Source of the DNA: a virus
Taxonomy: Duplodnaviria > Caudoviricetes
Direction: 5' to 3' (one strand)
Length of the DNA stretch: 57,716 bases
IMG/VR virus record: IMGVR_UViG_3300025132_008330
Span: 1 to 57,716 of that record
The notes beneath the pieces were generated by a model. The model was not told the DNA's origin and made no database searches. It saw nothing but the letters and a program-made list of their open reading frames with translations. Both the position numbers and the translations under genes were made by a program. This document shows, one piece after another, positions 3,669 through 52,388 of this stretch. The first letter of the stretch is position 1, and every line of letters begins with the position of its first letter.

Positions 3669-3697
3669 AATGTAACAGAGTTTTTATTAGATGTCAA
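3669..3697 (-). promoter_or_regulatory. Sigma70-type promoter with extended -10, probably giving a leaderless mRNA
   Basis: TTGACA (3697-3692), 17 nt spacer ending TGT, TACATT (3674-3669), then CCTCCT-ATG with no SD. Confidence 0.7.
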
Positions 3698-4865
3698 GCT
3701 TTAGTTTGAAAGTAAGATCTCTTTCTTCTGTTTTTTTGACTGGGGTGGCTAGCTTGGCAACTGCTATGAGATTTTTGTTTTCATCATATATGCCAATTTT
3801 TGAAATGTATGTCTCTTTTTTGAACTGCGGCTCCTCATCTGTATATGAGGCACTAACAACATTTTTTAGTACTAAGTTCTTCTTTTCTATGTAGAAAGTA
3901 GAGCCTGTTGTCGCAGTTGCTGCTTGTCCATAGCTTTTAAATGTTGGATTGTTTGAGTGGTTAATCGCCCCTTTGGGGGCATTTGCAAACATTGTAACGA
4001 CTTGAGATTTAGTTGTACCAGCAAAATCCAAAACCCATGACGACTTTTGACCAGATATTGATATTCCGTCCTGTGCCCCTACTGCAAATTTCAGCCAGTT
4101 TGGTACCGTATCTGAATCGGAAGGGTTGTAATCCTCTGTTGTGTGTTGACCGCTTGTCAAATCCCAAGAACCAGTTAGCATTAGGAAACCCTCGTTGTAC
4201 AGGGCGACTCCTGCGATTGAGCCAGAGCCGTTGCTGGCGGGGGGACCTGTTTGAATTAGCTCTCCATTTTGTTTTTCATCTTTGAGAGTACCCACCAAGG
4301 TGCCAGAAACAAAAAAGTTTAATTCTAATGATCCTTTTTTTATCTGAGATCCGTAAAAAATCGATGGTATGCTAATCAAATTAACATCTTGCGTATCCTT
4401 ATCCCATCCGTCGTTAAAATTAGACGAGTAAGCATAGTGCTCACTGTTAGCCTTATAAAAATTCATAGTATTTTTTAAAGCATCTAATTCTTTCCTGTCT
4501 TGAAGAGAGGATGAAAAGAAGTTCCTTGTTATACTAGCAGATAAAGGATATGAGCCGGTTATTATGTCTCCAAATTGAAAATCTGAATTAAATCCGGTTG
4601 TTGAGATCGTCTTAAAGGCAGTCAAGGAGCCGTTTTTTGTGAGAAACGGATATATCAACTCGCCTGCTGGGCGGTCAACATTTACTTCGTATAAATTTAA
4701 AAAACCGGGAGGGACATGATTAATGTTTTGTTCCGACAAATCCCCTTTATTGAAAGGTCGGTTATTGTGATAAACAACACCACCATATATAAAAAAGGTG
4801 CTTTTTGGGAATGTCTTTAGCGTGTTTCTTACAATGTCATCACGACCAAATGGATAGTAAGGCAC
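3687..4865 (-). CDS. Virion structural protein (baseplate/tail-fibre attachment-like), paralog of 4881..6014
   Basis: GTG start with AGGAGG SD. IKKGS, NHSNNPTF and C-terminal TYISKIGIYDENKNLIAVAKLATPVKKTEERDLTFKLKLDI are shared with the neighbouring gene. Confidence 0.65.
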   Translation of the reverse strand: MPYYPFGRDDIVRNTLKTFPKSTFFIYGGVVYHNNRPFNKGDLSEQNINHVPPGFLNLYEVNVDRPAGELIYPFLTKNGSLTAFKTISTTGFNSDFQFGDIITGSYPLSASITRNFFSSSLQDRKELDALKNTMNFYKANSEHYAYSSNFNDGWDKDTQDVNLISIPSIFYGSQIKKGSLELNFFVSGTLVGTLKDEKQNGELIQTGPPASNGSGSIAGVALYNEGFLMLTGSWDLTSGQHTTEDYNPSDSDTVPNWLKFAVGAQDGISISGQKSSWVLDFAGTTKSQVVTMFANAPKGAINHSNNPTFKSYGQAATATTGSTFYIEKKNLVLKNVVSASYTDEEPQFKKETYISKIGIYDENKNLIAVAKLATPVKKTEERDLTFKLKLDI

Positions 4866-4880
4866 AGGGTCAACCTCCTG

Positions 4881-6014
4881 TTAGTAGTCCAGTCTTACTC
4901 TTAATGTCAACTCTGTGTCTGGAGTTTTCTTTAGAGGTTCTGATACTTTTGCCACGGCTAACAATTCATTGTCAGCCGAGTATAGTCCAACGGTGGTGAT
5001 GTAAGAGGCTGGTTGGTCTAAACTGCTGTTCTTTACTCTAATTTGACTAGTATTGTCAATGTATGTTGGGTTAGAGCTATAATTAAATTCATTATGACCT
5101 GCTCTTGCAAAATAAATAGTAGAATTTAATTCTGTTGTATTGTTGAAATCTAAATCATAAATTCTGTGCCTGAAGGAGTCGCACGATCCTGAAATAGAGA
5201 CACTTGTTAGGGCATCATTGATCGTTTGACCGGAAGGCGTAAATGCTACAGCAGAATTCGCACCCCCGGCGCCGCCGGAGACGATTGCGTTCGTAGAATC
5301 GGTACCTGCTCCGAGCATGACCGATGCGGTTAAAACTGCAATCCCTGCTTGGTAGAACAACTGACCAACAACGGTGTCGGCTGGAGTAGTTGCACCTGTT
5401 GCATAAAGTATTGCATATTCCCCTGCTGGAGAGTTTACTTTGTAGCTTGTTGCTGCGCCAGAATCAGTTATTGTCAAGAGTTCTCCAAATTCTGTTGCGC
5501 CTGCGCCGCCGGACATAAATGAACCACTAACCCCAAGCTTCAAGTTGAAAGATCCTTTTTTAATTTCATCTTTTTGAAGTAGTCTAGCAAAATTAACAAA
5601 AATGCACTCACGAAGCTTTGTGCCTGTGGCATAATTACCGTCTTCATCAAACTCTCGGATTGACCCCGTTATGTCGTGTCCTGCTAACAATTGAGCCATT
5701 TGATTATAAATGTTAATTTTGTCAGCGTTTTGGGTGTTTGCAGAAGCTGAAAGATCTGAGTTGTTTGAATACCCCACTGTCAAATCTATAATGTGATTCG
5801 CAGATGAGCTTAAATAAGGATAATCATACACAGACTGAAAAAGACCATGTGAATAATTTTTAATATTTGTCTCTGCATTCGAGCCTGTCAACACAACTGC
5901 TGGATTATTGTAAGTTCCTGACAAGATCGATCCCGTGATCGGAATTGCTTCATGCAGAAGAGTCCTAGTTGTTGTAACATCGTTGTTTAAGAAATTTTTA
6001 AAACTTGTTGCCAT
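4881..6014 (-). CDS. Virion structural protein (baseplate/tail-fibre attachment-like)
   Basis: IKKGS, NYSSNPTY and C-terminal SYITTVGLYSADNELLAVAKVSEPLKKTPDTELTLRVRLDY, resembling the GLxD/xxxxLxAVA segment of tail collar/fibre base domains. Confidence 0.65.
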   Translation of the reverse strand: MATSFKNFLNNDVTTTRTLLHEAIPITGSILSGTYNNPAVVLTGSNAETNIKNYSHGLFQSVYDYPYLSSSANHIIDLTVGYSNNSDLSASANTQNADKINIYNQMAQLLAGHDITGSIREFDEDGNYATGTKLRECIFVNFARLLQKDEIKKGSFNLKLGVSGSFMSGGAGATEFGELLTITDSGAATSYKVNSPAGEYAILYATGATTPADTVVGQLFYQAGIAVLTASVMLGAGTDSTNAIVSGGAGGANSAVAFTPSGQTINDALTSVSISGSCDSFRHRIYDLDFNNTTELNSTIYFARAGHNEFNYSSNPTYIDNTSQIRVKNSSLDQPASYITTVGLYSADNELLAVAKVSEPLKKTPDTELTLRVRLDY

Positions 6015-6029
6015 TTGATTATTCCTATT

Positions 6030-6965
6030 TTATTGTATTTTTAGAAACGAAACTGGAATCGTTATTCTGTATCCGGTTGTCGCCCCAGTAATTCTAATAT
6101 TTGTATCAATTCTTCTAAAAGTTCCAGTTCCGCCATTGAAAGTAAGCGAATTTCCACTAGTCCCGAGGAGTGTAAACAAATATGTTGAGCTATTAAGCTC
6201 AATGGAAGGATTAACTCTAAGAGAAATCCTACTTCCTCGTGGACCCTGAATGGGGGAATTGCTATTTTTTGTCAAACTTATATTAACCATATCAGAGTCT
6301 GATGAGAAGTTATAGCTAGCAATATTGTCATCATCCAGATAAGAGTATGCTTGTGTAGACCCTTGCTGATCTACGACATATCCAATCCTATTATCTATCT
6401 CCACGATGTATTGCGTCTCAAGCAGTGTTGGATCAATAGTGAAATTTTTTGATATTGCTGTGGTGTTTAATCCCTGATCAACCATAATGACAGTGTTTTT
6501 TTCTTCATTCTGCCCAGATAAGAATAATCCCTGCGGGATCGTGTCTGCTCCAGAGGCAGAGTATGTACCTTGCTTGGTGAAAAAGTTGTCTGTTGCATCG
6601 TCGCATGAAATAAAGAATGTATTTGAGCTAGTTGCCGATCTTTTTTCTGCCGAACCATCTTGTTCATTGAGCAACATTGTGGGCAAGTATAGAAGATTTG
6701 TCTTTGGAATTGACAGCAGTCTGTTTTTCATCGTAGACATATTATTTGTCAAAGCTTCGATTACTGGTGTTGTCAAAATGTTGATGTCATAGTAAGCAGA
6801 GCCGCTGGAATGGTTTAAGTCATACTTAGCATAGTCGATTTCATCATCTGCAAAAGCATATTTTACAATCTTAAATGATCCGTCGCCCCTCGCTAATCTT
6901 GCTCTACCAGCGTCGGTGAGCACAGCATCTAAAATAATATCTCCACTGTTGTCTAAAAAAGCCAT
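6030..6965 (-). CDS. Virion structural protein (tail/baseplate)
   Basis: N-terminal DAVLTDAGRARLARG..FKIVKYAFADDEIDY. AGGAG SD. Two copies of the putative late motif upstream. Confidence 0.65.
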   Translation of the reverse strand: MAFLDNSGDIILDAVLTDAGRARLARGDGSFKIVKYAFADDEIDYAKYDLNHSSGSAYYDINILTTPVIEALTNNMSTMKNRLLSIPKTNLLYLPTMLLNEQDGSAEKRSATSSNTFFISCDDATDNFFTKQGTYSASGADTIPQGLFLSGQNEEKNTVIMVDQGLNTTAISKNFTIDPTLLETQYIVEIDNRIGYVVDQQGSTQAYSYLDDDNIASYNFSSDSDMVNISLTKNSNSPIQGPRGSRISLRVNPSIELNSSTYLFTLLGTSGNSLTFNGGTGTFRRIDTNIRITGATTGYRITIPVSFLKIQ

Positions 6966-6996
6966 TTATTTTCTCCTAAAATGCGTATATTGCCTT

Positions 6997-7023
6997 TATA
7001 ATTAGTCTTTTCATATAAATAGT
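6997..7023 (-). promoter_or_regulatory. Putative phage late promoter, tandem copies
   Basis: ACTATTTATA (7023-7014) and ACTAATTATA (7006-6997) in the 90 bp intergenic gap. The same motif precedes three other structural genes. Confidence 0.55.
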
Positions 7024-7055
7024 TAAGTTTTTTAATTTGTCTCATTTAATCTTTT

Positions 7056-10000
7056 TTAAAACTCGCCCGGACCAGCAAAAGTTGATCCAGCCTTGACCAC
7101 TTCTCCAACGGTGCCCTCTGTTGTTTCTGGTTGTTGCGTAACCTTTACTTGACCTTGAGAATCTCCGCAAGTTGTTATTTCTTCCGTTGGCTGTTCATGT
7201 CTGGAAATAAATGCTATATTTAAATCTATTATTTTGCCTGTATGCTTAGATTTAATTCTAAACTTATATTTCTGAGAGCCGCTTGATGTAAAAATCCCTT
7301 TATCTTTAATTCCGAGTACAGGCTTCTGATTGACTTGAGGATATGCTGTGTCGGAGTCTTTTAATTTAGATTTTTCCAAATTCACAATTCCTTGCAGGGT
7401 CTCGGCATCGATCTGTAATCTTCTTTTAAAAGGCTTAGTTTTTAGTCCCAAAGCTGGTTTTTGGAATTCATAAATTGATATCACTGGATATACAACGCCT
7501 GAATTTTCTACCATTTCCACCTGATAGACCGGTGAGGGGTTAGAAACATTGCCATGTACATCAACAGACCTAAACATGTAATAGTATTTCTTATTTTGTT
7601 CTAGTTTATCTGTAAAAGAATGTAGTTTTAAGGCATTTATAGTTTTCTTAGTACCATTTGTAAAACTTGGGTATTCTGTAGGTGGCACATCCATTCTATA
7701 AACCTGATATTTGACTGGGTAGTCATCCGATTTAAATTGCAATTTTGGCTCCACAAAATATGATGCAGGCAAAGCTGAAGCGAATAACGCTTCGGCAAAA
7801 GAAATTGGTGCTTTTAGTAAAAATCGATCTTGTGCTGTTCTGACCTTGTTAAATATGGGTCCATCATGTGCCAAATCAACATAAACTGGCTCTACCTCCC
7901 TGTCAACAGAGGGGGGATAGAAATTTATTTTTAAATCGTTGTTTTTGCCTTTTAAGGGAACAATATCGACTTCAGGTGCAAGGGATGGTGAATCGTGTAC
8001 AATTGCATTTTTCTTATAAAATGGCACCTCTACAATTTTTACATCTGGCTCTAAAACAACATCGAACATTGCCATTATTTTATTTTCTTGATCTAAGCTT
8101 TTGTAAAAATATGCCCCTGTCCATGGGGATTGACCACCTGCAAGCATTCCCTTTACATCTACCCCACCAGCTTGAGTGCCGAATGAAGACTGAAGCGAGG
8201 CTACTTTTTCAGGTATTAGAACATTTATAATATCGCTAACTTGTTTGTTTTTTTGGTCGATTGATTTGTAAACATCTGCAATTTGTTTTTTAATTAGTTT
8301 TCCGTAACTAATTCCCTTAGCTTCTAGCTGTGTAGAAAGTACAAACGGCGCCTTGCTCTCTATTGTTTGGATTGCCGTGTTATATAAATTCCATATTTCA
8401 GGATAAATGGATTCTTGAAAGTTTGCAGCCATGACTTTATCTAATTCATCTTGAACTTGTGAATAATAGCTTGCGATTTCCTCTTCTAGTTTGGAATTTT
8501 CTGATTGCATTTTTGCAGTTGATTCAAGAGTTATGTATGTTGCCAGATCTGGGTATTTTATTAGTATTTCATTGACTCGCTTTCCGTACACTCTTGGTCT
8601 CAAGGAATTATACAATTTTTCAAGATTTTGCAAAACCTCTATGCCGGGATTTGGAGGAGCAGCTTGTTGCTGTTCAAACACAGGATTTGTCTTATAGTAT
8701 ACAAAATCCTCTGTCTTTCCATAACCTTCATTAAAGGCACTCTTTTGCATGGAATCTATAAATTTTGTTTGTTTTTCCGTTACAAATCCCGGAGAATGTG
8801 AGGCGATTTGGAATCCGTACTTCGACCCTATAGTCAAATTATAAGCGTATATTGTGTATTCATAATTTTGATCATAGACGACTTGCGTATCAATATATTT
8901 CATTATATCTTTGCCGTCTTCTATTCCTGTAGGTTTTGGAATCCAAATGTTTTGAACTATTCCGCTGCCTTGAGCATTCCCATTATTGTCCAAAGCCACC
9001 TTTTGAATTCTATAGAAAAGAGTTTCCGTGTACGCAGAATCTTTATTCAATATTTGATCATATGTTCTAGAGTTTTGCTTTACTAAATCTCTGTATTTGC
9101 CCATAAATTTTACAGTTTTCAGCATCTTTATTAAAGATGTTGTCTCCTGCTCTGGACAGTCTAGCAAAGATGAGGCGATTGAGCCAAACTTCTTGGAGTT
9201 TTTTGTTGCCTCATAAGAGCGAATGACATCTACTTTATATTTTTTATAGTAATCTGATAATTGATTATTTGAAATACTAGCCCAAGTTGACATATGGCTA
9301 ATATACATATCTAGCCACCTATTTAAATCGAACTCTCGGAAGCCGCTAATATCCCCTTCCCTTATTGGGTTTGGGCTCATCTGAGTCATGTCAATTGAAT
9401 CAGATAGAGGAACAACTTTGTAAAAATCTCTATAATCTGATATAGAATATATCTGATCTTGGCAAATTCTAGGTGATTGCTTTTGCACTTCGCCGCTATT
9501 GTAGGCTGGGTTTAGATCAAAAGGATTCCAGTATCTTTTTGTTTGATCTGCAATTGTAGAGTTCTTGCTTGGCTCAACATTTAGCCCATCGGATGAAACC
9601 TCTCTTGTAAAAACATTTCCAATTAGGGTGTCCAACAAGTCATTCATTAAGCCAGAATCGCTAAATATTTGCGTAAAAGCCCTCCTTGAATCTGTTGAAA
9701 ATTTAAAATCTACATAAAATGGGAATTGTCTTTTTATACTTTCATATCTAGAGAGATATTCTTGATCGTCTTGGTACAGCACAATATTGAACGCTTTTGT
9801 TTCGTCTTTCACATCATCAGGAACATAGCCGCAGTTTAATAACTTATGCCCAAATTTTTCGAATTTAAACTTTGAATCATTACCTAGAGGGGCGGGTGTT
9901 TCGTCCTCTTCTATGGGGACTTCATAAATTAATGGCAAAGTTCGTTCTGTGAATTCTACAGTCTCATTTCCAGAATCTGGCAATGTTACAAACATTTTTC

Positions 10001-11015
10001 CGTTTTCATTCTTTTTTGTGGCTGTTTCATACAGTTTGGAATAAAAATTATATGACGATCTTATGTCACAAATTAAATTACTTTTATTTATAACATTTGT
10101 CAAACTGGATGCTCTGGTTGATATTGGCAGATCCATATTAAATGCCATATCTGAATACCCACTGAATGTTTTTAATATGGTTTCTTTTGTTAGTGGGTTA
10201 AAAAAGTTTAGCGGATACTTGTATGTTTCGGTCTTAAAGTCATAGAAGTAGTCCATATGACCATTGTCTACTGCGGTCTCTATAGCGCTTAAAGAATAGT
10301 TTGACCAAGTGTTCTTTACAGAATCAAGAACACCTTGCTGTACCGGGTTCAGATCCAGAGTCTCCGCCATCTTAATGTCTGTTTGAAGTGCGGTGTCGTA
10401 GATATCACTTTTATCAAAAGTGCTCCTGTAATTGTATATGTAATTTGGTCCAGTGGTTGACTTTGGGAATGAAAAAGATATTGGATTTTCAGTTCCTTGA
10501 TTTACAGTATATGATGGTGCGCTGCTTTTTACGCTCATATCCGTTATTAAAGATAGCACCCCTAGTCTATTGTTTAATAAGTCCGAATTATTAAAGAATA
10601 CTTTTACCCTTGTTGCATCCCTGTGCAAGTTCAAGTTATTTGAAGAGCCGTTGACAAATATTTGCTGCCAATCTTCAGAAACATCTTCAAATTTTAAATT
10701 ATTTGATACATCAAAACTGGCGTTATAAGCTTGAGGCACAAGGCTTGCTTTGATATCTGCCAAGCTATCTTTAAACCTTGTTTTGTTGCCGAATGTCCAA
10801 AATTTTCCCAAAGATTGCCTAAATGGGTCTATTGAAGAACGAGGTATTTCATCGCCGTTGGTGTCAATCCCCGGTGATGCAGAGCCATTAACTTTATTCA
10901 AAATAATTTTCGGATCAGAACCTTGAGCTTTGGGGAAAAAATTACTTTCCCTCACAACCAAAGTGTAAGCTGTCGAATATTCGTTTTTTAATCTATCGTC
11001 TAAAGAGTTTGACAT
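7056..11015 (-). CDS. Large putative virion protein with fibronectin type III-like elements
   Basis: 1319 aa. YIDTQVVYDQNYEYTIYAY and YQVYR...FTDKLEQNKKYYYMFRSVDVHGNVSNPS are FN3-like signatures. Lies within the structural module. Confidence 0.6.
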   Translation of the reverse strand: MSNSLDDRLKNEYSTAYTLVVRESNFFPKAQGSDPKIILNKVNGSASPGIDTNGDEIPRSSIDPFRQSLGKFWTFGNKTRFKDSLADIKASLVPQAYNASFDVSNNLKFEDVSEDWQQIFVNGSSNNLNLHRDATRVKVFFNNSDLLNNRLGVLSLITDMSVKSSAPSYTVNQGTENPISFSFPKSTTGPNYIYNYRSTFDKSDIYDTALQTDIKMAETLDLNPVQQGVLDSVKNTWSNYSLSAIETAVDNGHMDYFYDFKTETYKYPLNFFNPLTKETILKTFSGYSDMAFNMDLPISTRASSLTNVINKSNLICDIRSSYNFYSKLYETATKKNENGKMFVTLPDSGNETVEFTERTLPLIYEVPIEEDETPAPLGNDSKFKFEKFGHKLLNCGYVPDDVKDETKAFNIVLYQDDQEYLSRYESIKRQFPFYVDFKFSTDSRRAFTQIFSDSGLMNDLLDTLIGNVFTREVSSDGLNVEPSKNSTIADQTKRYWNPFDLNPAYNSGEVQKQSPRICQDQIYSISDYRDFYKVVPLSDSIDMTQMSPNPIREGDISGFREFDLNRWLDMYISHMSTWASISNNQLSDYYKKYKVDVIRSYEATKNSKKFGSIASSLLDCPEQETTSLIKMLKTVKFMGKYRDLVKQNSRTYDQILNKDSAYTETLFYRIQKVALDNNGNAQGSGIVQNIWIPKPTGIEDGKDIMKYIDTQVVYDQNYEYTIYAYNLTIGSKYGFQIASHSPGFVTEKQTKFIDSMQKSAFNEGYGKTEDFVYYKTNPVFEQQQAAPPNPGIEVLQNLEKLYNSLRPRVYGKRVNEILIKYPDLATYITLESTAKMQSENSKLEEEIASYYSQVQDELDKVMAANFQESIYPEIWNLYNTAIQTIESKAPFVLSTQLEAKGISYGKLIKKQIADVYKSIDQKNKQVSDIINVLIPEKVASLQSSFGTQAGGVDVKGMLAGGQSPWTGAYFYKSLDQENKIMAMFDVVLEPDVKIVEVPFYKKNAIVHDSPSLAPEVDIVPLKGKNNDLKINFYPPSVDREVEPVYVDLAHDGPIFNKVRTAQDRFLLKAPISFAEALFASALPASYFVEPKLQFKSDDYPVKYQVYRMDVPPTEYPSFTNGTKKTINALKLHSFTDKLEQNKKYYYMFRSVDVHGNVSNPSPVYQVEMVENSGVVYPVISIYEFQKPALGLKTKPFKRRLQIDAETLQGIVNLEKSKLKDSDTAYPQVNQKPVLGIKDKGIFTSSGSQKYKFRIKSKHTGKIIDLNIAFISRHEQPTEEITTCGDSQGQVKVTQQPETTEGTVGEVVKAGSTFAGPGEF

Positions 11016-11037
11016 TTATTCTATATCCTCAAATAAA

Positions 11038-15102: not shown

Positions 15103-16064
15103 GGCTCCTCTGTATCATTTGTTGGAGTTTCATAAATATTTGTTTTTATGTCTTTTCTTATTCCAACACTTTCAGTTATCTCATCATCTACTTTTATATC
15201 AAAATAGTATTCAACATTGCCTTGTTTAACATCTATTTTTTGCGACAGGTCTTTTGAGTAATATATCTCATTAACTACCTTTGTACCGTTTATGAAATAC
15301 AATGGCTCCAAAGAGTCTTTTATTTTGTTATCCGATGGTTCATCAACGATTTCGTAAACTTCAATATCAAAGTTTTCGTTATCAAAAACAGAATTGTGCT
15401 CTTTTAAGTCTATTAGTATGTGATTTTTTGTCACTTCGATATAAGTGCTGTCTGGGAAAACAGTTATATTTTCAGAATTTGTTGATTGTGGTGCAACATT
15501 TTCTGTAAATTGCTTTATTGAAGTGTCATACACCAATTCCATTTCTACTTGGGGTATTTTTAGCAAACCCGAAGACCCCGTGTAGTCCAAAACAGAACCT
15601 GTTATTTCTCCACTGTGCACGAAAAGATCCCATGCAGGGTCTTTATCAGAATTATATTCGCTTGTTCCCATGGGTAGCCCCATACTGTAGTGGTTTTCTA
15701 TAGTATCGGGCGGTTTTGACAATATGTCAAGCTTTTCCTCTAGAGACAACTCTACTTGTACCACTTCGCTCAAGAATGGATTAAAAACATTTTCTACTTT
15801 TGCGATTTTATTAAATGTGGTCTCTACGCCAGAGAAATTATACTGTGCTGTTGGTCTAATGCTCTCTCTAATCCTGTCGGATGCGTTTGTAGAGAATTCC
15901 AACTGTGTTGATGAGCCTGTTGACATATATTGGCTGTCATATATTACATCATCATCATAAAAAGCATAACAAGCAGGTTGAAAAACTCCCTTTGACAATA
16001 GATATTTGCCATACTGCGTTAACTGTATGTCAATTACTTCTTCTTTTCGATTAAAAAACTTCAT
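15096..16064 (-). CDS. Virion structural protein, N-terminus homologous to 6030..6965
   Basis: DIQLTQYGKYLLSKG.FQPACYAFYDDDVIYD aligns with DAVLTDAGRARLARG..FKIVKYAFADDEIDY. Confidence 0.6.
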   Translation of the reverse strand: MKFFNRKEEVIDIQLTQYGKYLLSKGVFQPACYAFYDDDVIYDSQYMSTGSSTQLEFSTNASDRIRESIRPTAQYNFSGVETTFNKIAKVENVFNPFLSEVVQVELSLEEKLDILSKPPDTIENHYSMGLPMGTSEYNSDKDPAWDLFVHSGEITGSVLDYTGSSGLLKIPQVEMELVYDTSIKQFTENVAPQSTNSENITVFPDSTYIEVTKNHILIDLKEHNSVFDNENFDIEVYEIVDEPSDNKIKDSLEPLYFINGTKVVNEIYYSKDLSQKIDVKQGNVEYYFDIKVDDEITESVGIRKDIKTNIYETPTNDTEEPC

Positions 16065-16068
16065 TTGT

Positions 16069-16078
16069 TATAAATAGC
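16069..16078 (-). promoter_or_regulatory. Putative phage late promoter
   Basis: GCTATTTATA 4 nt upstream of the ATG at 16064, no SD. Confidence 0.55.
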
Positions 16079-16095
16079 CATTATTGTTGTTTTTG

Positions 16096-19000: not shown

Positions 19001-22000
19001 ATGTTTAAGTGAGCTAAACTGTAGCTATTACCTGTTTTATCAAGTATGTCTGATCCTGATAGTGCAAAGGTTCCATACTCGTAACTTAAGGATGCCGTTA
19101 TTGCGTTTGAAGACGAGAGAGTCGTTGGCGCAGAGCTTGCCAATCCCTGCATTGGCACTTTGTATAAATTAAACACCCAGTTGTTATAAGAGAGTTCTCC
19201 ATTCAAGGATTTTAATTCAGTAGTTGTTGGCAATCTCAGTGACCCTTCGCCATCTCCCGCTGCTGTTACACTGGCTCTGGAGCCACCGGCACCTGTCGGA
19301 GCAATTTGAACCATTGGGTAATTTGCTGTCAACGGCCAACAATCTAAGTCAATTACATTCTCGTATGATGTTCCTTTGAATGTACCAGCATCAATTGGTA
19401 CATTCATTGAATTTTTTGCATCGCCGATTGACCTTAAGCGATCTTTTGATTCATCTCTCCAGAATGTCCTAGCTTTTCCAAGTGGTCTATTAAACTCTGT
19501 TGATCCGCTCGCTTCACCGTAATTTTCTCTCATTCTTGTTTTTTTCAAGAATGTAAATGACTCTCTAGGATAAACAGTTTCTCTATATTTCATGGATGGC
19601 ACTAACTTAATTGGGTTAGATCCAAGAAGGGCGCCGTCATATTCATTATCGATATAAATTCTTTTAAGATCATCGTAAACCTGTCTTTCATAAGACGGGT
19701 CAAACCCAATGGTTTTTGTCATGCTTTCAAAAACTGTTTGTATTCCATTGGTATTTGTCATGGTGAAATATACCAAATTATTACCATAACTACTGTTTAG
19801 TATAATTTCTGGACCTTCTAAGCCATCGTCTTTTTGAAAATTCCAAAGTTGCACTATGTGCCTTAGCGGTTTATACTTTGAGCTAACCGGGGGTTCTGTA
19901 TAAGAAAACAATTTGTCCTCTGCCACAAACTCACCATTATTTTCAAATATATCGTTTAATACATTTTCTTCCCTCAAGAAAGACATTCTGTTTGTCTTCT
20001 TCATGTCTTTTACTACAGGGTGGTCTCCTTGTCTTACTTGCTTCCAAGAAGAGAAGCCGCCAGCACCATTTCTATTAAGATTGATCGCATTTAATATAGC
20101 ACTCTGACCAATATATCCGGCAGCAAGATTGCTTAAATCTTCAGCTATCAAACCGCTATTGACAAAATCAGAATTCAATGACAAACCTAAAGTGTTTGTG
20201 GATGCCGTTATATCCCCAATAGCATGAAAATTTAATCCCACAAAATCAGTTGGAACAAGTGCAAAAGTCGCAGCTCGTGGGATTGCCGAAGCGAAAAGTC
20301 TATTCCCTGATGTTACAAATGACTGTACCTGACTTGCTGTAACAAATGTGATATCTGTCGAAGCCATGCTAGCATTAACATTGTTTGGCTGCTGGTATCC
20401 AAATATTGTTGATGTAGCAGATGCTGTGATCCAGCTATATTGCATATCACTTTGCGGAATCATATGCTGAACAAAAGCATTATCAAATGTTGTTCCCGTA
20501 ACTAGATTCAACCCGAGACCATCGTGAGACCCAGCGTCTGGTTGTCCGTTAATTTTTAGTCTTTTTGCCCCATTTCTTTGCGTCTTATGGTATGACGCAT
20601 TTGGGCTGCCAATAACGCTGTTGTATCCCCCAAAAGCACTGTGCTCCGTTAACCAACCTCTCAAAGGGACTCTGACAGACAAGTTTCTGTATGGCAATGC
20701 ATTATAGACAGAAAATGTTTCTGATTCGTAGTCCATGAACCCTGCACCCATGGTTTCGGGACCTCCGGGGGCGGAAAACTTATTGACAAAAACATACTTG
20801 TTTTTTCCTCGATTTGGAATAGCCCTATCAATATTGCTGCGGATTGGCAAAAAGGTCGGCGACACAGATGCTGTGCTTATGCCAACATTTTCAATAAAAT
20901 ATTTATTATTTATAGACCTGCCCGGAATTTGCACAATTTCGTAATCATGTGAGTAGTTACCAAGAGATATTGAGCTTCCAAGCTCATTCGTTGTGCCTCC
21001 GACTGAAGGTATTTGAGAACTTGTTATGTTTTTGATGTTCTTTATATTTACAGAACTTTTGGCAATATGATCTCTTGAATATCCTGCTCTTGGGTACCCC
21101 GTTGATATAGCAAAAGGATTATAAATTACAAAATAGGTTTCAGTGCCAACGACAGTTGTTGTTGTATACCACCCTTCTTGTCTTGTCGAAGCAGCCGATA
21201 TATTAAGACCTACATGCCTATATTGATATCCCCCAACATGTTGTTCTGTGAAAGGACCCTGTAGAGGCACATCTTTAGTGTCTACATAATAATCTTGCAA
21301 ATGCTGAGTTGTTTTAAAGAAGCCTGTTGGGTCTGTGTTTTGACTCCCGACAGATGAACTATAAAACACAACTGGAGAAGCCATTCTTCCCAAATATGAT
21401 GCGCCAGATTCGCTGCCAGATGTTATTCTAAATTGAGGCTTAAATTTAAACTGAGGGTTTTTATCAGTTGTGTCATCGCATGTTACTGGCTTACTAAATG
21501 TCGTTGTGTTAAAAGCTATGTTCTCTCCGGTTCCCGGAGGTGTTTCTGCAAAGACAAACTGTTTCTTATTAAGACTTTTTCTAAGCCCTTGATTATCCAA
21601 GTTCAATCTTATTCCAGTATCAAGTTTTCGGTTGAATACCTGAAGGGAGGCAGAATGAATCTGTTTTCTATCATAATCAGTGGCAGCATCACCGCTGGTA
21701 AGCGTTGGATTATCTCTTGATGCTCTTTTATTCCACCATAGACAGTTGTCTTTTTCTGAATTGTCTAAAGGGGCATGCCCGTTCTTCCAATCATATGCTA
21801 ATTCGTTGATTCCTCTGGCTGCATCCTCAATAATGCCAAGTTTTCCCTCCACTGTAGGGAACTTGGATTGATATTTATTTCTTTCCAGCATGTGGCTTTC
21901 AACAACATTCGTTACTGAGGGCATTTTTGCTGAAGCTGGCACTAATTGTTTAACCATTTCAGAAATTGAGTTATCTAACCACTTGTAGTAATTTAAATAT

Positions 22001-25000
22001 TTTTCAAGATCAGGAGTGTTTCCAACTCTATTGAAGAAAAGATTTCTAACCTTTTCCATTGACTTGAACCCCATCCTATATCGATTTACAGGATCGCCAA
22101 CATAGTTTTCTAAAGCACTTGCTTCTTTTGATGCGATGAAAAAATTTATCATTTCTTCGGAAACCGTTTGATACATGCTTTTTTCAATTGCAAAAGAAAA
22201 TTTTACAGGAAGTGTGTTTTTTGTAAATGTTAGATCATCTGTAGCTGCAATAGTGATCATGTTTGAATCATTAATATTTTCAGGTATTTGCTGCTTAAAA
22301 GCAGATAAATATTCTCTAGACACAGAGTTTTTATCACTTGCTTCGAAGAAATCTCCTCGGGCGTCATTATTGCCCTCTAATAAGTTTTCAAAATCTGTGC
22401 CCCAGAGTTGATAGTTTTCATCCTGATTAATAGTATAGCTACTATCCTTAACAATAAACTGCCCACTTCCATCAGAGCCTGTAATCGTGTCAAATTCCCA
22501 ATTTAGTAAAAGCGATTTTATTCTTGGGACCTCGATTGCACCATCTGGTCTTGGAATTGTTAAATATGAATTTTCATTTGGTGTTATAACTCCATAGGTG
22601 CTTGGATCTATGGCATGAGCTTTGAATTCGTCGCTACTCAAATCGTCTGCCCAGTATCTACATGAAGAAACAAGAGCATCAGAAAATTCTCTTACGGACC
22701 CAGTAAAGTTTGTCCTATGAGCACCTGCATAAAGCCTTTTCTTTTGAGTTATAAAGTTTAACCCTGCGGCGTTTGTTATTGATCCAGTGGCTTTGAAAGA
22801 GTTTATCACAACATCCGATATTGTACTTATTCCTTCAAACTCAACATCGTAATCCTTTCCCAATGAACCAGTAATTGTTGTTCCTATGTACGGATATCCT
22901 TTTGGCTTTACTCTTACTGCAAAATTCCACTTTACATCCTTGTACTGATCCATATATAAGCTACTTGTCAAAGTTGGCAAAACACCATTATAGCTTTTCA
23001 TTATAAATTGAACACTTTTAGAAGCTTCCTCATCTTCTTTAAAAGTATCAGCGACGGCGTAAACTTGAAAGTTTGCATAATCATTAGAGTCCCAAGTTGT
23101 AACAGTCGCTGCATCGGAGCCTGCATCAATTTTAGCAGAGTGCATACCAAACACTGAAGATGTTAAATAAGGAAAATATTTATTTTGAAAATTTGGATCG
23201 CCGAATTCAGGCTTTCGAGGAAGAATTGCCTCTGCCTCCACAGTCATGGCAAGACCTCTATCAAATCCCGATGTTGTGTTCGTGCTACCTGTTATAAAGC
23301 CAAAATTATTTGCCTCACTTGAGTTTTTATATGAGTAAACGCTTGCATCATTTCGTTCTACATTGTTAAAATCAGCATATGTCTTTCTTATTGATTTTTC
23401 TACAAAATTATTTGTCAAAGTGAACTCTGAATTGTCAGCGTACAAGTTAATTTTGTATATTTCTTCGTCTACCCCAAAGCACCTAAAAAGATTTCGTATT
23501 GCCTTTTGAGTACCCTTAGACTTATTAATATATGTTAAATTGTTGTAAATATTTTGGTATATATAATTTTTAACATCATACAGTTTTTTTTCGTACTCTC
23601 TTTCATTATCTTTGTGCGACAAAGCTGCAATTACATCAGTGTCAGCAAATATTTCAGGAGCTACAAAACCATAGTTTGTTAGCAACTTCGAAGCGAAAGG
23701 GGATGGCTTGGTGTGCGATTCTATACTGCTACTCAAATACCTAACTGTTTTTATTTTTTTCATCTCCTCGATTTGAAGATGAAGGGTGTCAAAATAGCTA
23801 GCCATTATTTGAGTCAGCTCTAATGTCGTGTTTCTATTTCCATTGGAATCCTCTTCTTGAATCCAAGCTGGTAAAGTGTTGAAAAGCATTGACGGATTTC
23901 TATAATCCCACTCTTTTCCTTTTTGTATTGAAGAGTCTTTGTATGAACTAACTGTTGGGTGAGAGAAATACAATATGGGGTCTTTAAATTCTCTTTCAGC
24001 GGCTCCTGCCAAGACCATTGCAGACCCCGTACTTCTGGCTGTGGCGCTATAATTGTTATAAAGACCATTGGAGACTCGACCTGAATAGTCTAAAACATTT
24101 TGGTCTGATGTGGTGTCTCCTGTGATTCCTTCATTAAATTTAAAATATATTCCAAGCTTTGTGTTTGATGTATCTGTGTTTGTGCCTGCTCCAACTTGAG
24201 TAAACCAATATGAATTGATTTCATTCTCTGTCCTTGCTGTTTTCCAAAACCTAAACTCATCAAATGAGGCAGACGCATTACCTCCACCAGAAAAGGTTGA
24301 TAATCCAGCAGTTATACCGGCAGCTTTTACATATTCATTTGGATAAGTTCTGTATCCTCCAAGATGAGCGTCAATTCCGCCAGCAGATGCGCCTGTGACT
24401 TCTAGCACAGATGATCCTGTCAGCTTGTTTTCAATAAGATTTCCGTTATAAAATGTTTTAACATTTAATTGATTGCCGCTATTTTTAATTGTTACTGCAT
24501 AATGGTCAAAACTTCCTACTGTTGGCGCACCAATAATAGAAATTGGAAACAGTGGCACTCTTTCTGCACCAGTTGTACCGGAGTGGAATGTAAGGTGCAT
24601 CAAGCAACCATTGACAAAGTTGTTGCTCGTTGTTTCGAACCTGCTCTCCAACAAGAGGCGACCATAGCTAGCGCTACCGGGTTGAGTTTCTGCGGTTCCA
24701 TCGCTGTTCCAAGCATCAAAAAGAGCCTTAGTTGTAAAAACATTGCCGTCTGTTCTTAACCAGAACTCAATAGTGTTTCCCGTAGCTCCATCAATAGTAA
24801 TGTTTTTTTCCCTATTGTTGGAAGTATCATAGAAATTTGCTTTATGTTCTGGATTTTTAAAATCTGCTGATTTTTCTAGATTTTGATCGTACAGGGGAAG
24901 AGATGCTTGATTTGGTCCACCCTTTACACTAACATATTGAGCGCTTGTTGCCAATTGATAAGCTTCATCACCAGTTCCGGGGTTATTGACAAAGGACGCT

Positions 25001-25404
25001 GCGGCGCCTCCATTTAGGGGTGCAAACGATACGAATCCATTTGTTCTAGGATATTCGTTTTCAAAAATATAGTTATCCAAATAAGACGAAGACAAAGACC
25101 ATTGAATTTTTTCTTTCTTTGACCCATCATATGGATAGGTCTTGTAAATTCTTTCAATGGATGTTTTGTAATATTCTTTAGCAGATCCGTATTTAGCGAA
25201 TTTTGCCGGGGCAGAAAAATCTACTGTTGGCACAACTCTTTCTTTATTCTCTAGCTCTGCTCTAATATAATCTGCTGATTCTATTTGATCCCCTAAAGAA
25301 TCTAAACTTGCAGAAGCAACAAATTTTGAAGACGCTTGTCCGTTTGTACTTTTTTTGCCAAAAAGGGATTTTAACCCGCTGGTCTTATCGCCGTATTTTG
25401 CCAT
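16096..25404 (-). CDS. Giant baseplate/tail protein with LamG (concanavalin-like) domains
   Basis: 3102 aa. TIEFWLR...FDHYAVT...FDEFRFWKTART...YFKFNEG...DYSGR LamG signature. LTYINKSKGTQKAIRNLFRCFG resembles the KGT motif of baseplate wedge (gp7/tail protein I-like) domains. Downstream of gp6/gp25. Confidence 0.75.
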   Translation of the reverse strand: MAKYGDKTSGLKSLFGKKSTNGQASSKFVASASLDSLGDQIESADYIRAELENKERVVPTVDFSAPAKFAKYGSAKEYYKTSIERIYKTYPYDGSKKEKIQWSLSSSYLDNYIFENEYPRTNGFVSFAPLNGGAAASFVNNPGTGDEAYQLATSAQYVSVKGGPNQASLPLYDQNLEKSADFKNPEHKANFYDTSNNREKNITIDGATGNTIEFWLRTDGNVFTTKALFDAWNSDGTAETQPGSASYGRLLLESRFETTSNNFVNGCLMHLTFHSGTTGAERVPLFPISIIGAPTVGSFDHYAVTIKNSGNQLNVKTFYNGNLIENKLTGSSVLEVTGASAGGIDAHLGGYRTYPNEYVKAAGITAGLSTFSGGGNASASFDEFRFWKTARTENEINSYWFTQVGAGTNTDTSNTKLGIYFKFNEGITGDTTSDQNVLDYSGRVSNGLYNNYSATARSTGSAMVLAGAAEREFKDPILYFSHPTVSSYKDSSIQKGKEWDYRNPSMLFNTLPAWIQEEDSNGNRNTTLELTQIMASYFDTLHLQIEEMKKIKTVRYLSSSIESHTKPSPFASKLLTNYGFVAPEIFADTDVIAALSHKDNEREYEKKLYDVKNYIYQNIYNNLTYINKSKGTQKAIRNLFRCFGVDEEIYKINLYADNSEFTLTNNFVEKSIRKTYADFNNVERNDASVYSYKNSSEANNFGFITGSTNTTSGFDRGLAMTVEAEAILPRKPEFGDPNFQNKYFPYLTSSVFGMHSAKIDAGSDAATVTTWDSNDYANFQVYAVADTFKEDEEASKSVQFIMKSYNGVLPTLTSSLYMDQYKDVKWNFAVRVKPKGYPYIGTTITGSLGKDYDVEFEGISTISDVVINSFKATGSITNAAGLNFITQKKRLYAGAHRTNFTGSVREFSDALVSSCRYWADDLSSDEFKAHAIDPSTYGVITPNENSYLTIPRPDGAIEVPRIKSLLLNWEFDTITGSDGSGQFIVKDSSYTINQDENYQLWGTDFENLLEGNNDARGDFFEASDKNSVSREYLSAFKQQIPENINDSNMITIAATDDLTFTKNTLPVKFSFAIEKSMYQTVSEEMINFFIASKEASALENYVGDPVNRYRMGFKSMEKVRNLFFNRVGNTPDLEKYLNYYKWLDNSISEMVKQLVPASAKMPSVTNVVESHMLERNKYQSKFPTVEGKLGIIEDAARGINELAYDWKNGHAPLDNSEKDNCLWWNKRASRDNPTLTSGDAATDYDRKQIHSASLQVFNRKLDTGIRLNLDNQGLRKSLNKKQFVFAETPPGTGENIAFNTTTFSKPVTCDDTTDKNPQFKFKPQFRITSGSESGASYLGRMASPVVFYSSSVGSQNTDPTGFFKTTQHLQDYYVDTKDVPLQGPFTEQHVGGYQYRHVGLNISAASTRQEGWYTTTTVVGTETYFVIYNPFAISTGYPRAGYSRDHIAKSSVNIKNIKNITSSQIPSVGGTTNELGSSISLGNYSHDYEIVQIPGRSINNKYFIENVGISTASVSPTFLPIRSNIDRAIPNRGKNKYVFVNKFSAPGGPETMGAGFMDYESETFSVYNALPYRNLSVRVPLRGWLTEHSAFGGYNSVIGSPNASYHKTQRNGAKRLKINGQPDAGSHDGLGLNLVTGTTFDNAFVQHMIPQSDMQYSWITASATSTIFGYQQPNNVNASMASTDITFVTASQVQSFVTSGNRLFASAIPRAATFALVPTDFVGLNFHAIGDITASTNTLGLSLNSDFVNSGLIAEDLSNLAAGYIGQSAILNAINLNRNGAGGFSSWKQVRQGDHPVVKDMKKTNRMSFLREENVLNDIFENNGEFVAEDKLFSYTEPPVSSKYKPLRHIVQLWNFQKDDGLEGPEIILNSSYGNNLVYFTMTNTNGIQTVFESMTKTIGFDPSYERQVYDDLKRIYIDNEYDGALLGSNPIKLVPSMKYRETVYPRESFTFLKKTRMRENYGEASGSTEFNRPLGKARTFWRDESKDRLRSIGDAKNSMNVPIDAGTFKGTSYENVIDLDCWPLTANYPMVQIAPTGAGGSRASVTAAGDGEGSLRLPTTTELKSLNGELSYNNWVFNLYKVPMQGLASSAPTTLSSSNAITASLSYEYGTFALSGSDILDKTGNSYSLAHLNMIPDWTANLTSSRNPWFDSYDEYSNDIRRIGKDFTVIPEFRISDHMDYYLKKGFKAPNKKFMDVIGATTSNTSSATTENTNLLNDEFFRIYSHTDFMKHFEVLREDHVSAPAEKINSALIPSKIKLKCKGIKKLLPYQGFYPALRTVQLGQMFSSSYGPYLTGTYNGKGAVDAEQETQQLASLLQPFFAPGIMFNTVKSGIAVDWPVITGSITSKNPTPLSTGSQPAYGYRAAGMFNFDPDWRMPFEAIVEPNKHLPKFNDNFNNGGITDPSANLYHMWNNYLDLDLNYSDLAKRFSPLDGNGDPTETSAWYDNAGYARPTPNCAWTGEFDRKYNLAMSNFLAETIDFFLEDQQVTTFVSKPEKQFKPMVSGTTYFMDVVLSKTSQFKMYEGPSACFDFTAAHTASDLSVEFDNRLRGMHYGPAFSVSRMRSEATASQVCSEIVRATRDPAFAPYTPPYFYGSSIARVAFRPHALRAMEEGDSDTFTLSEIFSSAEIETVYLNTNDNTKGAWSSSRALTALSPSASAAYRNQMQISSSIKLFERTGEKFVDYAPIIGDNGEISYVPKAVTSPNNTENDVWVIETKFECPTLNFQSHPTASFGHGSGEEQKMTSGMWKTFGTIPAEDEGVFISIKDSFPQIKTRKAVVGRAGGERETSIRATGSLIDVCGFDGRQKRVGEIASSKTISEAIVAIPLNSDGTRVKIPKSAFNVQKQNIENDGIAVKAGDFSGVTQNIKETSISDMIKKMKKYVMPPHLDCINNDSVEPYVAYIFEFEHSLSKDDLSLIWQNMMPDISVTAQLTEATIEHPVLTGPDLEFFGTNPGVLTGKDKTDTADISVFPADMKWMVFKVKKRAKNNYFGLSITQDDNKGFGLSELDPQGKLGVSGKQLIYSYNWPYDFFSLVELGKMDSTITFEPRNSPAGTAEEPPLEQQIQSEEAKKQSVSTPGQQTSDVDIASIPGFGLDDPLP

Positions 25405-26945
25405 TAATCCTCTACCCTAAATTTAAATACCTCTGGTTGCTCATCATATCTACCGTTTGTATAATAGGCTAGCTTTATACCATACGCATACCCCGACTCT
25501 AACAAGTCCATGTTTAAATCAAAATAGTTCCCAGAAATATCATAAGATAATCTGGTGTATGATCCTGCCGAACCTGTTTGCTGTGGAGTAGATGCTGAAC
25601 CAGTTCCAAAAGCAATTGCCTCTAAATCATCAACAATTCTAAATACTTTAAAATATGCATTTTCAACTATGTAATTCTCTATTTGTGAACTAGCGACAGT
25701 ATATGCTGTCGGGCTCCAACCTTTTTCTCTAACATATAATCTAAATCTCGCATTTTCCGCTCGGGAATATGAGTCTTTTAAATTAGTTATCTTGCTAACA
25801 AAATTTGGATTTGGGTTTGTATTTGAAGCTCCATAAAGATTTACCGTTATCGCTGAACCTGTGTGATATTGTGTTCCACTTTTGTTCCACACTGGGAATA
25901 CAGTCGTTACCGATGAACTCGCTGCCGGATATACTAAACTAGCAGTATATATTCCCGTTGATATTTTTCCACCTACGGCTACAGTGTCGCCATCTGCTGC
26001 AACCCCTGCGCCTTGAGGCAACAGTATAGCATCTCCTGTTGGGGTAACATTTAAAGCAGATCCTGAAAAAAGGCTAACATCTACTATATTGTCTGTAAGT
26101 CCGGGGATGTCTGTTAGTTGCCCTCTAATATAGTTGTACAAATAAAGTTTATTAACATTGTCATCCGCTGGGGCGAGGGCACTGCTTAAGTAAAAAGTTG
26201 CGGCATTGTCCTTCTCTGTAGAGTCCCATCTAGCCTCAAGCACAGGTCTTTTGAAAAAATATTCACTTGATCTAGAAAAAAACTTTTTAGTATAATAAGT
26301 GTGAGATCCAGTTTCATAACTACCAGATAGTTTAACTAAAAACCCATATCTTGCCAAGCCAGAGCCAGAGCCATGAAGCATTTTCTCTACCATGTGAGAA
26401 ATATCAACTTCAAGGTCTTCTGTCCCATTGGTAAAGTATCCAACACCAGTAATCGTATCGTCACCTTCTCCGTCAGGAACTATGTCGCCACCTTGGGTTG
26501 TCCAATTGGTGCCGAGAGATGAAACAATCCAGTTGGATCCGCTTAGTACTCCATAAGTTTGATCCGTATACTCGTCCATATCAAGACCATCACCCTCTTG
26601 CCATGAGGCAGAAAGTGGCTGAACTGACATATAAAATTTCTTTGGGAGTGTAGATGCATGCCTAGCATTGTACATTCTTAAATACCAAGAGACATTTCCA
26701 CTAGCAGGGATTGTTGGGAGGCTGGAACTTCTTTCGGTTTCAATATCCGCAAATGGGAAATTTATTAAGATTCTAGATTTTTCAGACGAAAGACCAGAGG
26801 ACGATGATGTTTGCCCTGATATATAAAAAGATTCTAAGACATCTGCTGCCCCCATATTAGAACCTGTTCCACGAAATGCTAGGCTTGATCTGAAGGCATT
26901 TGTGATTGTGTTGTCAGCACTAGCTGTGTATCTATATAATCCCAT
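25404..26945 (-). CDS. Baseplate/tail-associated protein (DNRLRE-like beta-sandwich N-terminus)
   Basis: ASADNTI...SRILINF...W.EGDG...NW...W...GGD...VDISHMV...GFLVKL...FFSR...RPVLEARW pattern. Translationally coupled to the neighbouring genes. Confidence 0.6.
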   Translation of the reverse strand: MGLYRYTASADNTITNAFRSSLAFRGTGSNMGAADVLESFYISGQTSSSSGLSSEKSRILINFPFADIETERSSSLPTIPASGNVSWYLRMYNARHASTLPKKFYMSVQPLSASWQEGDGLDMDEYTDQTYGVLSGSNWIVSSLGTNWTTQGGDIVPDGEGDDTITGVGYFTNGTEDLEVDISHMVEKMLHGSGSGLARYGFLVKLSGSYETGSHTYYTKKFFSRSSEYFFKRPVLEARWDSTEKDNAATFYLSSALAPADDNVNKLYLYNYIRGQLTDIPGLTDNIVDVSLFSGSALNVTPTGDAILLPQGAGVAADGDTVAVGGKISTGIYTASLVYPAASSSVTTVFPVWNKSGTQYHTGSAITVNLYGASNTNPNPNFVSKITNLKDSYSRAENARFRLYVREKGWSPTAYTVASSQIENYIVENAYFKVFRIVDDLEAIAFGTGSASTPQQTGSAGSYTRLSYDISGNYFDLNMDLLESGYAYGIKLAYYTNGRYDEQPEVFKFRVED

Positions 26946-40548: not shown

Positions 40549-40555
40549 ATATTTA

Positions 40556-41134: not shown

Positions 41135-41135
41135 T

Positions 41136-42676: not shown

Positions 42677-42677
42677 A

Positions 42678-44695: not shown

Positions 44696-44699
44696 TATA

Positions 44700-52383: not shown

Positions 52384-52388
52384 GTCAA

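Follow-up and report, generated by a model that had tools for sequence, protein, structure and literature searches.

The window analysed here, the whole 57,716-nucleotide stretch at positions 1 to 57,716 of the IMG/VR virus record IMGVR_UViG_3300025132_008330, carries a short motif, [ST][GAS]S, that recurs in proteins of the baseplate and fibre region, together with a large set of genes for glycan synthesis. Every open reading frame (ORF) of at least 100 amino acids (aa) that belongs to a coherent gene string lies on the minus strand, which includes all structural and glycan genes described below. Pfam and PHROGs matches to a gp25-like wedge protein (134 aa, 28780-29184), a gp6-like wedge protein (602 aa, 26945-28753), a primase, a RuvC-like resolvase, a late sigma factor-like protein, a PD-(D/E)XK nuclease and PhoH identify the window as a contig of a T4-like myovirus. 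Encoded directly after gp6 is a 513 aa protein (25404-26945), followed by a giant baseplate-region protein of 3102 aa (16096-25404); two distal structural proteins of 377 aa (4881-6014) and 392 aa (3687-4865) complete the set of four motif-rich proteins. The nuclease and sigma-factor genes flank a run of 19 glycan genes (38670-55441), which encode a GT4-family glycosyltransferase, a divergent GT-B-like protein and 17 others.

A preliminary description of this DNA had listed motif-containing tetrapeptides in the four proteins, every one of which is present in the protein named, and had set composition-preserving shuffles as a check on them. Expected counts were obtained here from 2000 whole-protein shuffles, with 41 ORFs tested, and composition fails to explain the counts. 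The 513 aa protein is the densest, with 18 sites (overlaps counted) against 3.6 expected (z 7.6), and the 3102 aa protein has 38 against 12.4 (z 7.4). The 392 aa protein holds 7 (1.46 expected, p 0.0010) and the 377 aa protein 8 (2.32 expected, p 0.0025), all 8 of them preceded by I, L or V; the latter value alone fails a Bonferroni correction for 41 tests, and the result is replicated by the family of this protein. When the four proteins are pooled, 71 sites stand against 19.8 expected (z 11.8), and the form with a hydrophobic residue at -1 reaches 41 against 6.2 (z 14.6). A hydrophobic residue is likewise favoured at +3 (34 vs 6.1).

The motif is directional, T[GAS]S occurring 38 times in the four proteins and S[GAS]T 8 times (about 9 expected each). 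Thr at position 3 gives no excess ([ST][GAS]T, 13 vs 16.3), and a small residue is wanted at position 2 (hydrophobic-[ST]-[not GAS]-S, 9 vs 18.2). An unbiased scan of all 8000 tripeptides places TGS at the top of the list (21 vs 2.74), with TAS, SSS, SAS and SGS in the top 14. Codon usage at the sites equals background usage, in line with the earlier remark that different codons are used, and this rules out a DNA-level cause of the repeats. The same description had placed the motif in unrelated folds; the 392 and 377 aa proteins are the only paralogues among the four (26% identity over 251 residues).

It could be argued that the excess is a compositional or phylogenetic artefact, in which Ser/Thr/Gly-rich patches are kept by descent. 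The reversed motif is indeed somewhat enriched (41 vs 19.8), mostly through the palindromic SGS, SAS and SSS, and homologues are not independent samples. Local Ser/Thr/Gly-rich patches are nevertheless ruled out by shuffling inside 15-residue blocks (500 shuffles), which leaves 71 sites against 23.0 (z 10.6) and, for the hydrophobic form, 41 against 7.0 (z 14.0); none of the shuffles got as high as the observed count. This control, the 38 to 8 asymmetry, the lack of excess with Thr at position 3, the enrichment of non-homologous proteins, the depletion of neighbouring structural proteins and the lineage-specific gains, some inside inserted domains, have already largely refuted an artefact, which we regard as very improbable.

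Seven other structural proteins taken together are depleted of the motif (6 vs 15.4, z -2.5), and it could be that it is avoided where modification would harm the protein. Sites are absent from a 1640 aa structural protein (29189-34111; 3.0 expected), and the 1319 and 1354 aa proteins (together 7056-15102, the latter at 11038-15102) have 3 against 3.5 and 0 against 4.6, respectively, which bears out the rarity that had been judged by eye in these three proteins. The same is true of the enzymes, as the 23 proteins with genes at 38670 and beyond show neither excess nor deficit (8 vs 6.4). The gp25-like and gp6-like proteins have 0 (0.3 expected) and 1 (1.5 expected), a 322 aa structural protein (15096-16064) shows a weak excess (3 vs 0.7, p 0.04), and that of a 311 aa structural protein (6030-6965; 3 vs 1.6) is not significant. 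D-[ST]-[AILVMT] is the sequon of Bacteroidota general O-glycosylation. It is not enriched in the target proteins (14 vs 16.1), and the N-glycosylation sequon N-x-[ST] occurs less often than expected in the four motif-rich proteins (39 vs 54.0, z -2.4), so that both known sequons are ruled out. A further ORF of 543 aa, at 552-2183, has a Thr content of 12.3%, a weak match to a PHROG annotated as protease (E 8e-8) and zero motif sites.

The motif is widespread among relatives. In seven close IMG/VR relatives (L001-L007) the orthologues of the 513 aa and giant proteins are enriched (z 3.3-9.1), and gp6 and the protein of about 1600 aa are not. Database relatives of the two families searched number more than 3,500 (more than 3,534 at E<=1e-5 for the 513 aa family) and about 8,000. 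Among the matches listed, 120 of 120 in the 513 aa family are enriched (z>3.4; median 14 vs 3.65), and 120 of 120 in the 377 aa family have z>3 for the hydrophobic motif (median 7 vs 0.81). Over the 120 listed members of the 513 aa family, T[GAS]S totals 931 and S[GAS]T 150; at the core sites, 113-119 of these 120 have Ser at position 3, and position 2 swaps between G, A and S. Using gp6 as an anchor, 80 loci were collected, of which 69 were evaluable (at least 400 aa downstream) and 11 too short; 66 of the 69 are enriched downstream of gp6 (z>=3) and 0 upstream (highest z 1.7). In a second set of 80 loci, 67 of the 75 analysed are motif-enriched, the other five being on contigs already examined. 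Many of these contigs are fragments and some are near-duplicates. Gains of the motif are lineage-specific, and some fall inside inserted domains.

Two cultured distant relatives, Flavobacterium phage vB_FspM_immuto (immuto) and Microcystis phage Mel-JY01, carry the motif both in an orthologous module and in proteins annotated as tail fibre or spike; a 1053 aa protein of immuto, for instance, has 60 sites against 20.5 expected. The 3102 aa protein is weakly similar to 1265 and 1336 aa proteins of immuto and Mel-JY01, and the C-terminal 100 or so residues of the 392 aa protein are common to annotated fibre-sized proteins of Mel-JY01; a tblastn search with the 513 aa protein gave no match among 50,697 phage records. 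Across the 161 ORFs of at least 100 aa in the complete immuto genome, the excess is found in the outer baseplate/fibre module, the sheath (10 vs 3.8), a 373 aa protein of unknown function and a 141 aa protein, and a few small non-structural ORFs reach z>3 on just one or two sites. Besides the sheath, the flagged immuto proteins include those of 369, 1265, 337, 357, 568, 595, 211, 1053 and 373 aa. The enzymes, portal, tape measure and major capsid protein (3 vs 1.7) of immuto are not enriched. In G047, a 185 kb relative estimated to be 100% complete, 8 of 173 ORFs are enriched (ORFs crossing the ends of fetched stretches excluded): the orthologues of the 513 aa and 377/392 aa proteins, a 1199 aa protein, a 907 aa tail fibre, a 998 aa sheath, a 430 aa neck-adaptor-like protein and a 350 aa unknown; the remaining ORFs pooled have 23 against 26.2. 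In these two complete genomes the motif targets are confined to external tail parts. A control with 19 structural proteins of T4, including all fibres, showed no excess (28 vs 30.5), which rules out a general property of myovirus fibres and baseplates.

Two of the proteins just mentioned deserve a separate comment. The 373 aa hypothetical protein of immuto (L011:31032-32153; 135031-136152 of the record) lies outside the baseplate module and has 17 sites against 3.0 (z 8.4). In the 998 aa sheath of G047 (L202:5322-8318) the match to the sheath family is limited to residues 416-996, leaving a long extra N-terminal region, and the whole protein has 5 hydrophobic-motif sites against 1.2.

At the head of the glycan genes lies a conserved pair. 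The 424 aa GT4 protein (54167-55441) matches PF00534 (Glycos_transf_1; 52.0 bits, cut-off 26.4) and, in the PDB, GT4 enzymes including chlorovirus B736L (E 3e-6), and is 53-63% identical in relatives. The 439 aa GT-B-like protein (52847-54166) has only a sub-threshold Pfam match (PF20706, 23.0 bits vs 26), and its best solved relative in a profile search is B736L (E 4e-7). An E-x7-E arrangement is the signature of retaining GT4 enzymes. Residues E294 and E302 of the GT-B-like protein are invariant, and this retained E-x7-E pair may be catalytic. The two genes abut with zero gap (54167/54166) and are the only ones of the block that are well conserved with immuto (E 5.5e-74 for GT4 and 2e-61 for the GT-B-like protein); in immuto and Mel-JY01 they occupy the same place, after the nuclease. 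Homologues of the GT-B-like protein among the 50,697 phage records were found in immuto (4 records) and Mel-JY01 only. A predicted complex of the two proteins scored 0.83, against 0.00 for the best of three controls, with at least 95% of contacts agreeing between runs and a predicted local distance difference test (pLDDT) score of at least 89 for the partner. Of 80 solved complexes 58 attain that mark, as do 2 of 110 mismatched pairs, counts that hold only roughly for a model built, as here, on its own alignments of 11 and 8 rows. The model supports the prediction that the GT4 and GT-B-like proteins bind each other.

The other 17 genes form a block for soluble sugar enzymes (38670-52847), recognized by family matches. 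They encode a GDP-mannose dehydratase, a fucose synthase-like protein, a GmhA-like isomerase, a class-III aminotransferase, a PseF-like cytidylyltransferase fused to a cupin, dTDP-glucose-dehydratase-like and RfbH-like proteins, a reductase, a split transketolase and an RfaE-II-like nucleotidyltransferase, in addition to GT29-like and GT2 transferases, two Glyco_trans_1_2 proteins and a 281 aa protein without family match. From these matches, the chemistry of the block would be of GDP-fucose, heptose, dideoxyhexose and CMP-ulosonic-acid type. No membrane helix was found in the 19 glycan proteins (highest hydropathy in a 19-residue window 1.34), and Pfam matched no family of lipid-carrier priming transferases, flippases or polymerases in the window. 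Block content is hypervariable among relatives, with phosphonate genes, FkbM methyltransferases, a GT47-like protein or a UDP-ManNAc-type pathway, and in two small blocks the pair is the only Pfam-recognised transferase.

Several details of these blocks may be recorded here. Several relatives have the GT-B-like protein joined at its C-terminal end to a GT2 domain, in proteins of 643-680 aa (L177:1724-3766, L182:7809-9752 and L193:15059-16990), and frames of 644-688 aa occur in G005, G006, G012, G013, G032, G048, G057, G061 and G070. At L178:7136-8425 a cytidylyltransferase is fused to a phosphoenolpyruvate mutase, in a block that also holds a thiamine pyrophosphate-enzyme fragment and an Fe-alcohol-dehydrogenase-like protein, which suggests a glycan decorated with phosphonate. 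The 281 aa protein (51538-52383) often follows the GT-B-like gene in relatives (L178, L179), corresponds to the front part of a 536-548 aa protein in L183 and L184, and is absent from G001; it may be a further conserved component. As listed, its ORF shares 136 bases with that at 50609-51673, and the downstream (354 aa) gene probably begins later than its called TTG start. Between PhoH and the nuclease, a 233 aa ORF (56208-56909), 37% identical to its counterpart in G001, matches the Pfam family ATLF (anthrax lethal factor N/C domain) only below threshold (E 3.8e-4, 20.7 bits vs cut-off 27.4).

Lineages without the motif were informative. The three outliers of the gp6-anchored set, L031 (which is G001), L034 and L062, have 513-family orthologues that align end to end and hold unrelated residues at sites 27, 112, 207, 212, 294, 334 and 448, which are 97-99% conserved elsewhere; the G001 orthologue has 0 sites, against 18 in the window. 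The fold therefore does not need the motif, and the structural necessity that the preliminary description had set against its own proposal fails on these full-length orthologues as it does on the baseplate and fibre proteins of T4. Further contigs without the motif belong to the G001 clade (L100-L105) and the L062 clade (7 of 7 contigs), and L110 is intermediate. Placed on a 78-row gp6 tree, the 9 rows without the motif require at least three label changes, forced by well-supported branches. They are nested among motif-bearing rows, so that loss of the motif is the simpler reading of this tree, which is midpoint-rooted only. The L034 contig reaches only 1.6 kb upstream of gp6, and no longer contig from a close relative turned up. 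LR756508 (484 kb) represents a third lineage, with an orthologous baseplate module lacking an excess of the hydrophobic motif (2 vs about 1.5).

The broad motif was seen only where the GT-B-like protein and a glycan block are both present, and each testable motif-less lineage has also lost sugar-supply genes or one of the two conserved glycosyltransferases. A profile search for the GT-B-like protein in long contigs gave matches in 21 of 37 and 22 of 32; contigs without a match mostly end before the expected position of the block (e.g., G004) and were treated as uninformative rather than as absences, the early end having been judged from sizes, not record by record, for 17 of the 26 unmatched records. 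G001 is fully syntenic with the window, yet its sigma-factor gene directly follows the pair, with no sugar genes between. The same arrangement is found in all five motif-less contigs of this kind (G001, G038-G041), in which 11.9-12.5 kb separate the end of the pair from the 513 orthologue, against 19.2-32.1 kb in 18 motif-bearing contigs and 25.9 kb in the window. Similarly, 16.7-33.8 kb lie between the glycosyltransferase and gp6 in a further 19 motif-bearing contigs, against 10.2 kb in G001. These distances were taken by hand from coordinates, G046 was computed across contig ends, and the glycosyltransferase-bearing G009 has no motif score.

In G070, from the L062 clade, the GT4 gene and a GT-B-like-GT2 fusion are followed by a 194 aa ORF, a sulfotransferase-like ORF and then the sigma factor, with no nucleotide-sugar genes in the stretch between pair and sigma factor. 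Presence of the pair as a rule for presence of the motif is ruled out, as the pair persists in G001 and G070, where the broad motif is absent. In lineages with the pair and without the block, the 377/392 orthologues keep 24 hydrophobic-motif sites against about 4.6 (8 proteins, summed by hand), and these residual sites in two distal proteins may explain why the pair is retained. In LR756508.1, examined at 290000-325000 (L197), a GT4 homologue precedes a glycan block with GT10, two GT25, two GT29, NeuB, GMD, Fcl and two sulfotransferase-like proteins, and no GT-B-like orthologue was found; this phage may use another target or another sequon.

Could the motif instead play a structural or functional role without being modified, for instance as a strand-end cap or as a patch that binds glycans or ions, with the block acting on the host envelope or on phage DNA? 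The AlphaFold2 (AF2) model of the 513 aa protein (mean pLDDT 70.3) is mostly beta, with several beta-sandwich domains, and a fold search with it returned only generic tandem immunoglobulin-like/FN3 matches (TM-scores 0.1-0.3). Many sites are predicted at C-terminal ends of beta-strands, as would suit a cap: among the 18, those at 7, 207, 294 and 362. Others, however, are modelled within strands (27, 334), after helices (73, 212, 343) or in loops, some of low confidence (46-48, 112, 135, 193, 448-457). Contexts are also mixed in the poor model of the 377 aa protein (pLDDT 58.7), with which a fold search, limited by the low confidence of the model, found nothing significant (best E 0.78). Known targets of phage glycosyltransferases also include DNA and host serotype, according to the available passages of PMC12619734, and immuto has genes for 7-deazaguanine DNA modification. 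Set against these points are the orthologues of the same length and fold without sites, the lack of an excess in T4 and the strict Ser at position 3 combined with a free choice of G, A or S at position 2, which looks like recognition by an enzyme. In addition, co-loss of motif and glycosylation genes in separate lineages would have to be a coincidence, and the block lacks the membrane or lipid-carrier proteins needed for envelope glycans. We therefore consider an unmodified element unlikely.

We favour instead a sequon reading, in which hydrophobic-[S/T]-[G/A/S]-S marks external tail proteins for O-glycosylation in the cytoplasm, and assign it a probability of roughly two in three. This is what the preliminary description had proposed as the simplest identity of a selected modification sequon, and the comparative evidence supports it. 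The targets would probably be the outer baseplate and the fibres, and in relatives also the sheath and neck. Soluble phage enzymes would make unusual nucleotide sugars late in infection, and a heterodimer of the 424 aa GT4 and 439 aa GT-B-like proteins would prime Ser/Thr of the motif while the structural proteins are still unassembled. The variable block would then supply the glycosyltransferases that extend the glycan and the enzymes that decorate it, giving different phages different coats. From the sequence patterns we infer that sugar is attached to a residue of the motif, in which position 1 tolerates Ser or Thr and position 3 only Ser, and that the pair, not a block enzyme, reads it.

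Several observations weigh against O-glycosylation of the motif by this pair. The pair is intact in two motif-less lineages (the G001 clade and G070), for which the residual sites offer a possible explanation, and G070 retains a GT2 domain fused to its GT-B-like protein and has lost most sites nonetheless. Mel-JY01 has the motif and, beside the pair, only transferases and a methyltransferase, with no recognisable genes for nucleotide-sugar synthesis. Each kind of loss is represented by one or two lineages only, in a sample with many fragments and some near-duplicates. Conservation of the motif residues exceeds that of other S/T/G residues only modestly: p is 0.012, 0.026 and 0.099 at positions 1, 2 and 3 in the 513 family, and the test in the 377 family is not significant (0.097, 0.081 and 0.34). 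Finally, models with pLDDT of 70 and 59 are poor for judging site exposure, and the score of the predicted complex may partly reflect likeness to solved glycosyltransferase pairs.

Some of these observations would fit a motif that serves another modification or factor (phosphorylation, acylation, sulfation or docking of an assembly chaperone), with an indirect link to the sugar genes. Sequence alone does not identify the chemistry, some blocks contain sulfotransferase-like and methyltransferase genes, and the pair persists where the motif was lost. On the other hand, Pfam finds neither a kinase nor an acyltransferase in the window. What is lost alongside the motif is nucleotide-sugar synthesis or a glycosyltransferase-like protein, and block content varies so widely that the glycosyltransferase pair is the only constant recognisable partner. 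A different modification is thus, in our opinion, improbable.

If the motif is an O-glycosylation sequon, a larger picture can be drawn, in which an abundant aquatic group of T4-like phages wears an O-glycan coat on the tail. Its sequon would be read by a heterodimeric priming glycosyltransferase, and its composition would be set by a hypervariable cassette (fucose, heptose, dideoxyhexose, ulosonic acid, phosphonate, methyl, sulfate), creating particle serotypes like O-antigens; the coat could be switched off, after which the sequon would decay. We advance this picture tentatively, as somewhat short of an even chance. Were it true, sequon and conserved enzyme pair would make phage glyco-coats predictable from sequence, and the surfaces of abundant aquatic phages would be chemically diverse in a way that metagenomics has missed. 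There would be consequences for adsorption, evasion of defence, particle stability and aggregation, and a compact cytoplasmic O-glycosylation tag would become available for engineering. The reading is directly testable, since two relatives, immuto and Mel-JY01, are in culture and natural loss lineages provide ready-made controls.

A literature search found no report of this motif or of glycosylated virions for this clade, and the passages available describe glycosylation of tailed-phage particles as established only for mycobacteriophages, without a short sequon. Phage-encoded glycosyltransferases of mycobacteriophages glycosylate their own virion (Freeman et al. 2023, as cited in PMC12619734), with glycans at the C-termini of capsid and tail-tube subunits (PMC12619734). 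Judged from these passages, the window is similar in encoding glycosyltransferases for glycans proposed on its own structural proteins. It differs in its candidate sites, a four-residue motif scattered over proteins of the baseplate, fibres, sheath and neck; the major capsid protein of immuto is not enriched and the window holds no capsid gene. Hosts also differ, being aquatic Gram-negatives or cyanobacteria here, and the block is much larger and variable, with a glycan chemistry that is predicted.

The two-protein design recalls GtfA/GtfB, described in the available passages of PMC6973325 as a conserved cytosolic priming complex that acts on Ser/Thr of serine-rich-repeat adhesins, with variable extending transferases. 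An adjacent conserved pair predicted to bind, plus a variable block, is the likeness. The window pair is not a member of the GtfA/GtfB family, because neither protein matches DUF1975 at E<=0.01 and the match to Gtf1/GtfA (4pqg) is not significant (E 0.058). As far as that source goes, the substrates also differ, here being folded virion proteins with dispersed sites rather than long Ser-rich repeats, and the accessory Sec export of that system has no counterpart among the Pfam and PHROGs matches of the window.

By profile, the best solved relative of both pair members is chlorovirus B736L (PDB 3oy2), a virus-encoded soluble GT-B enzyme, and the similarity is distant. Chlorovirus capsid glycans are N-linked at atypical sites. 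The autotransporter heptosyltransferases TibC and AAH carry out cytoplasmic O-glycosylation at many Ser residues of a beta-rich surface protein. Family scans of the window proteins, with no dedicated sequence or structure comparison, gave no family match to TibC/AAH; the likeness is one of description, as the window block has heptose-pathway-like genes of its own (GmhA-like and RfaE-II-like).

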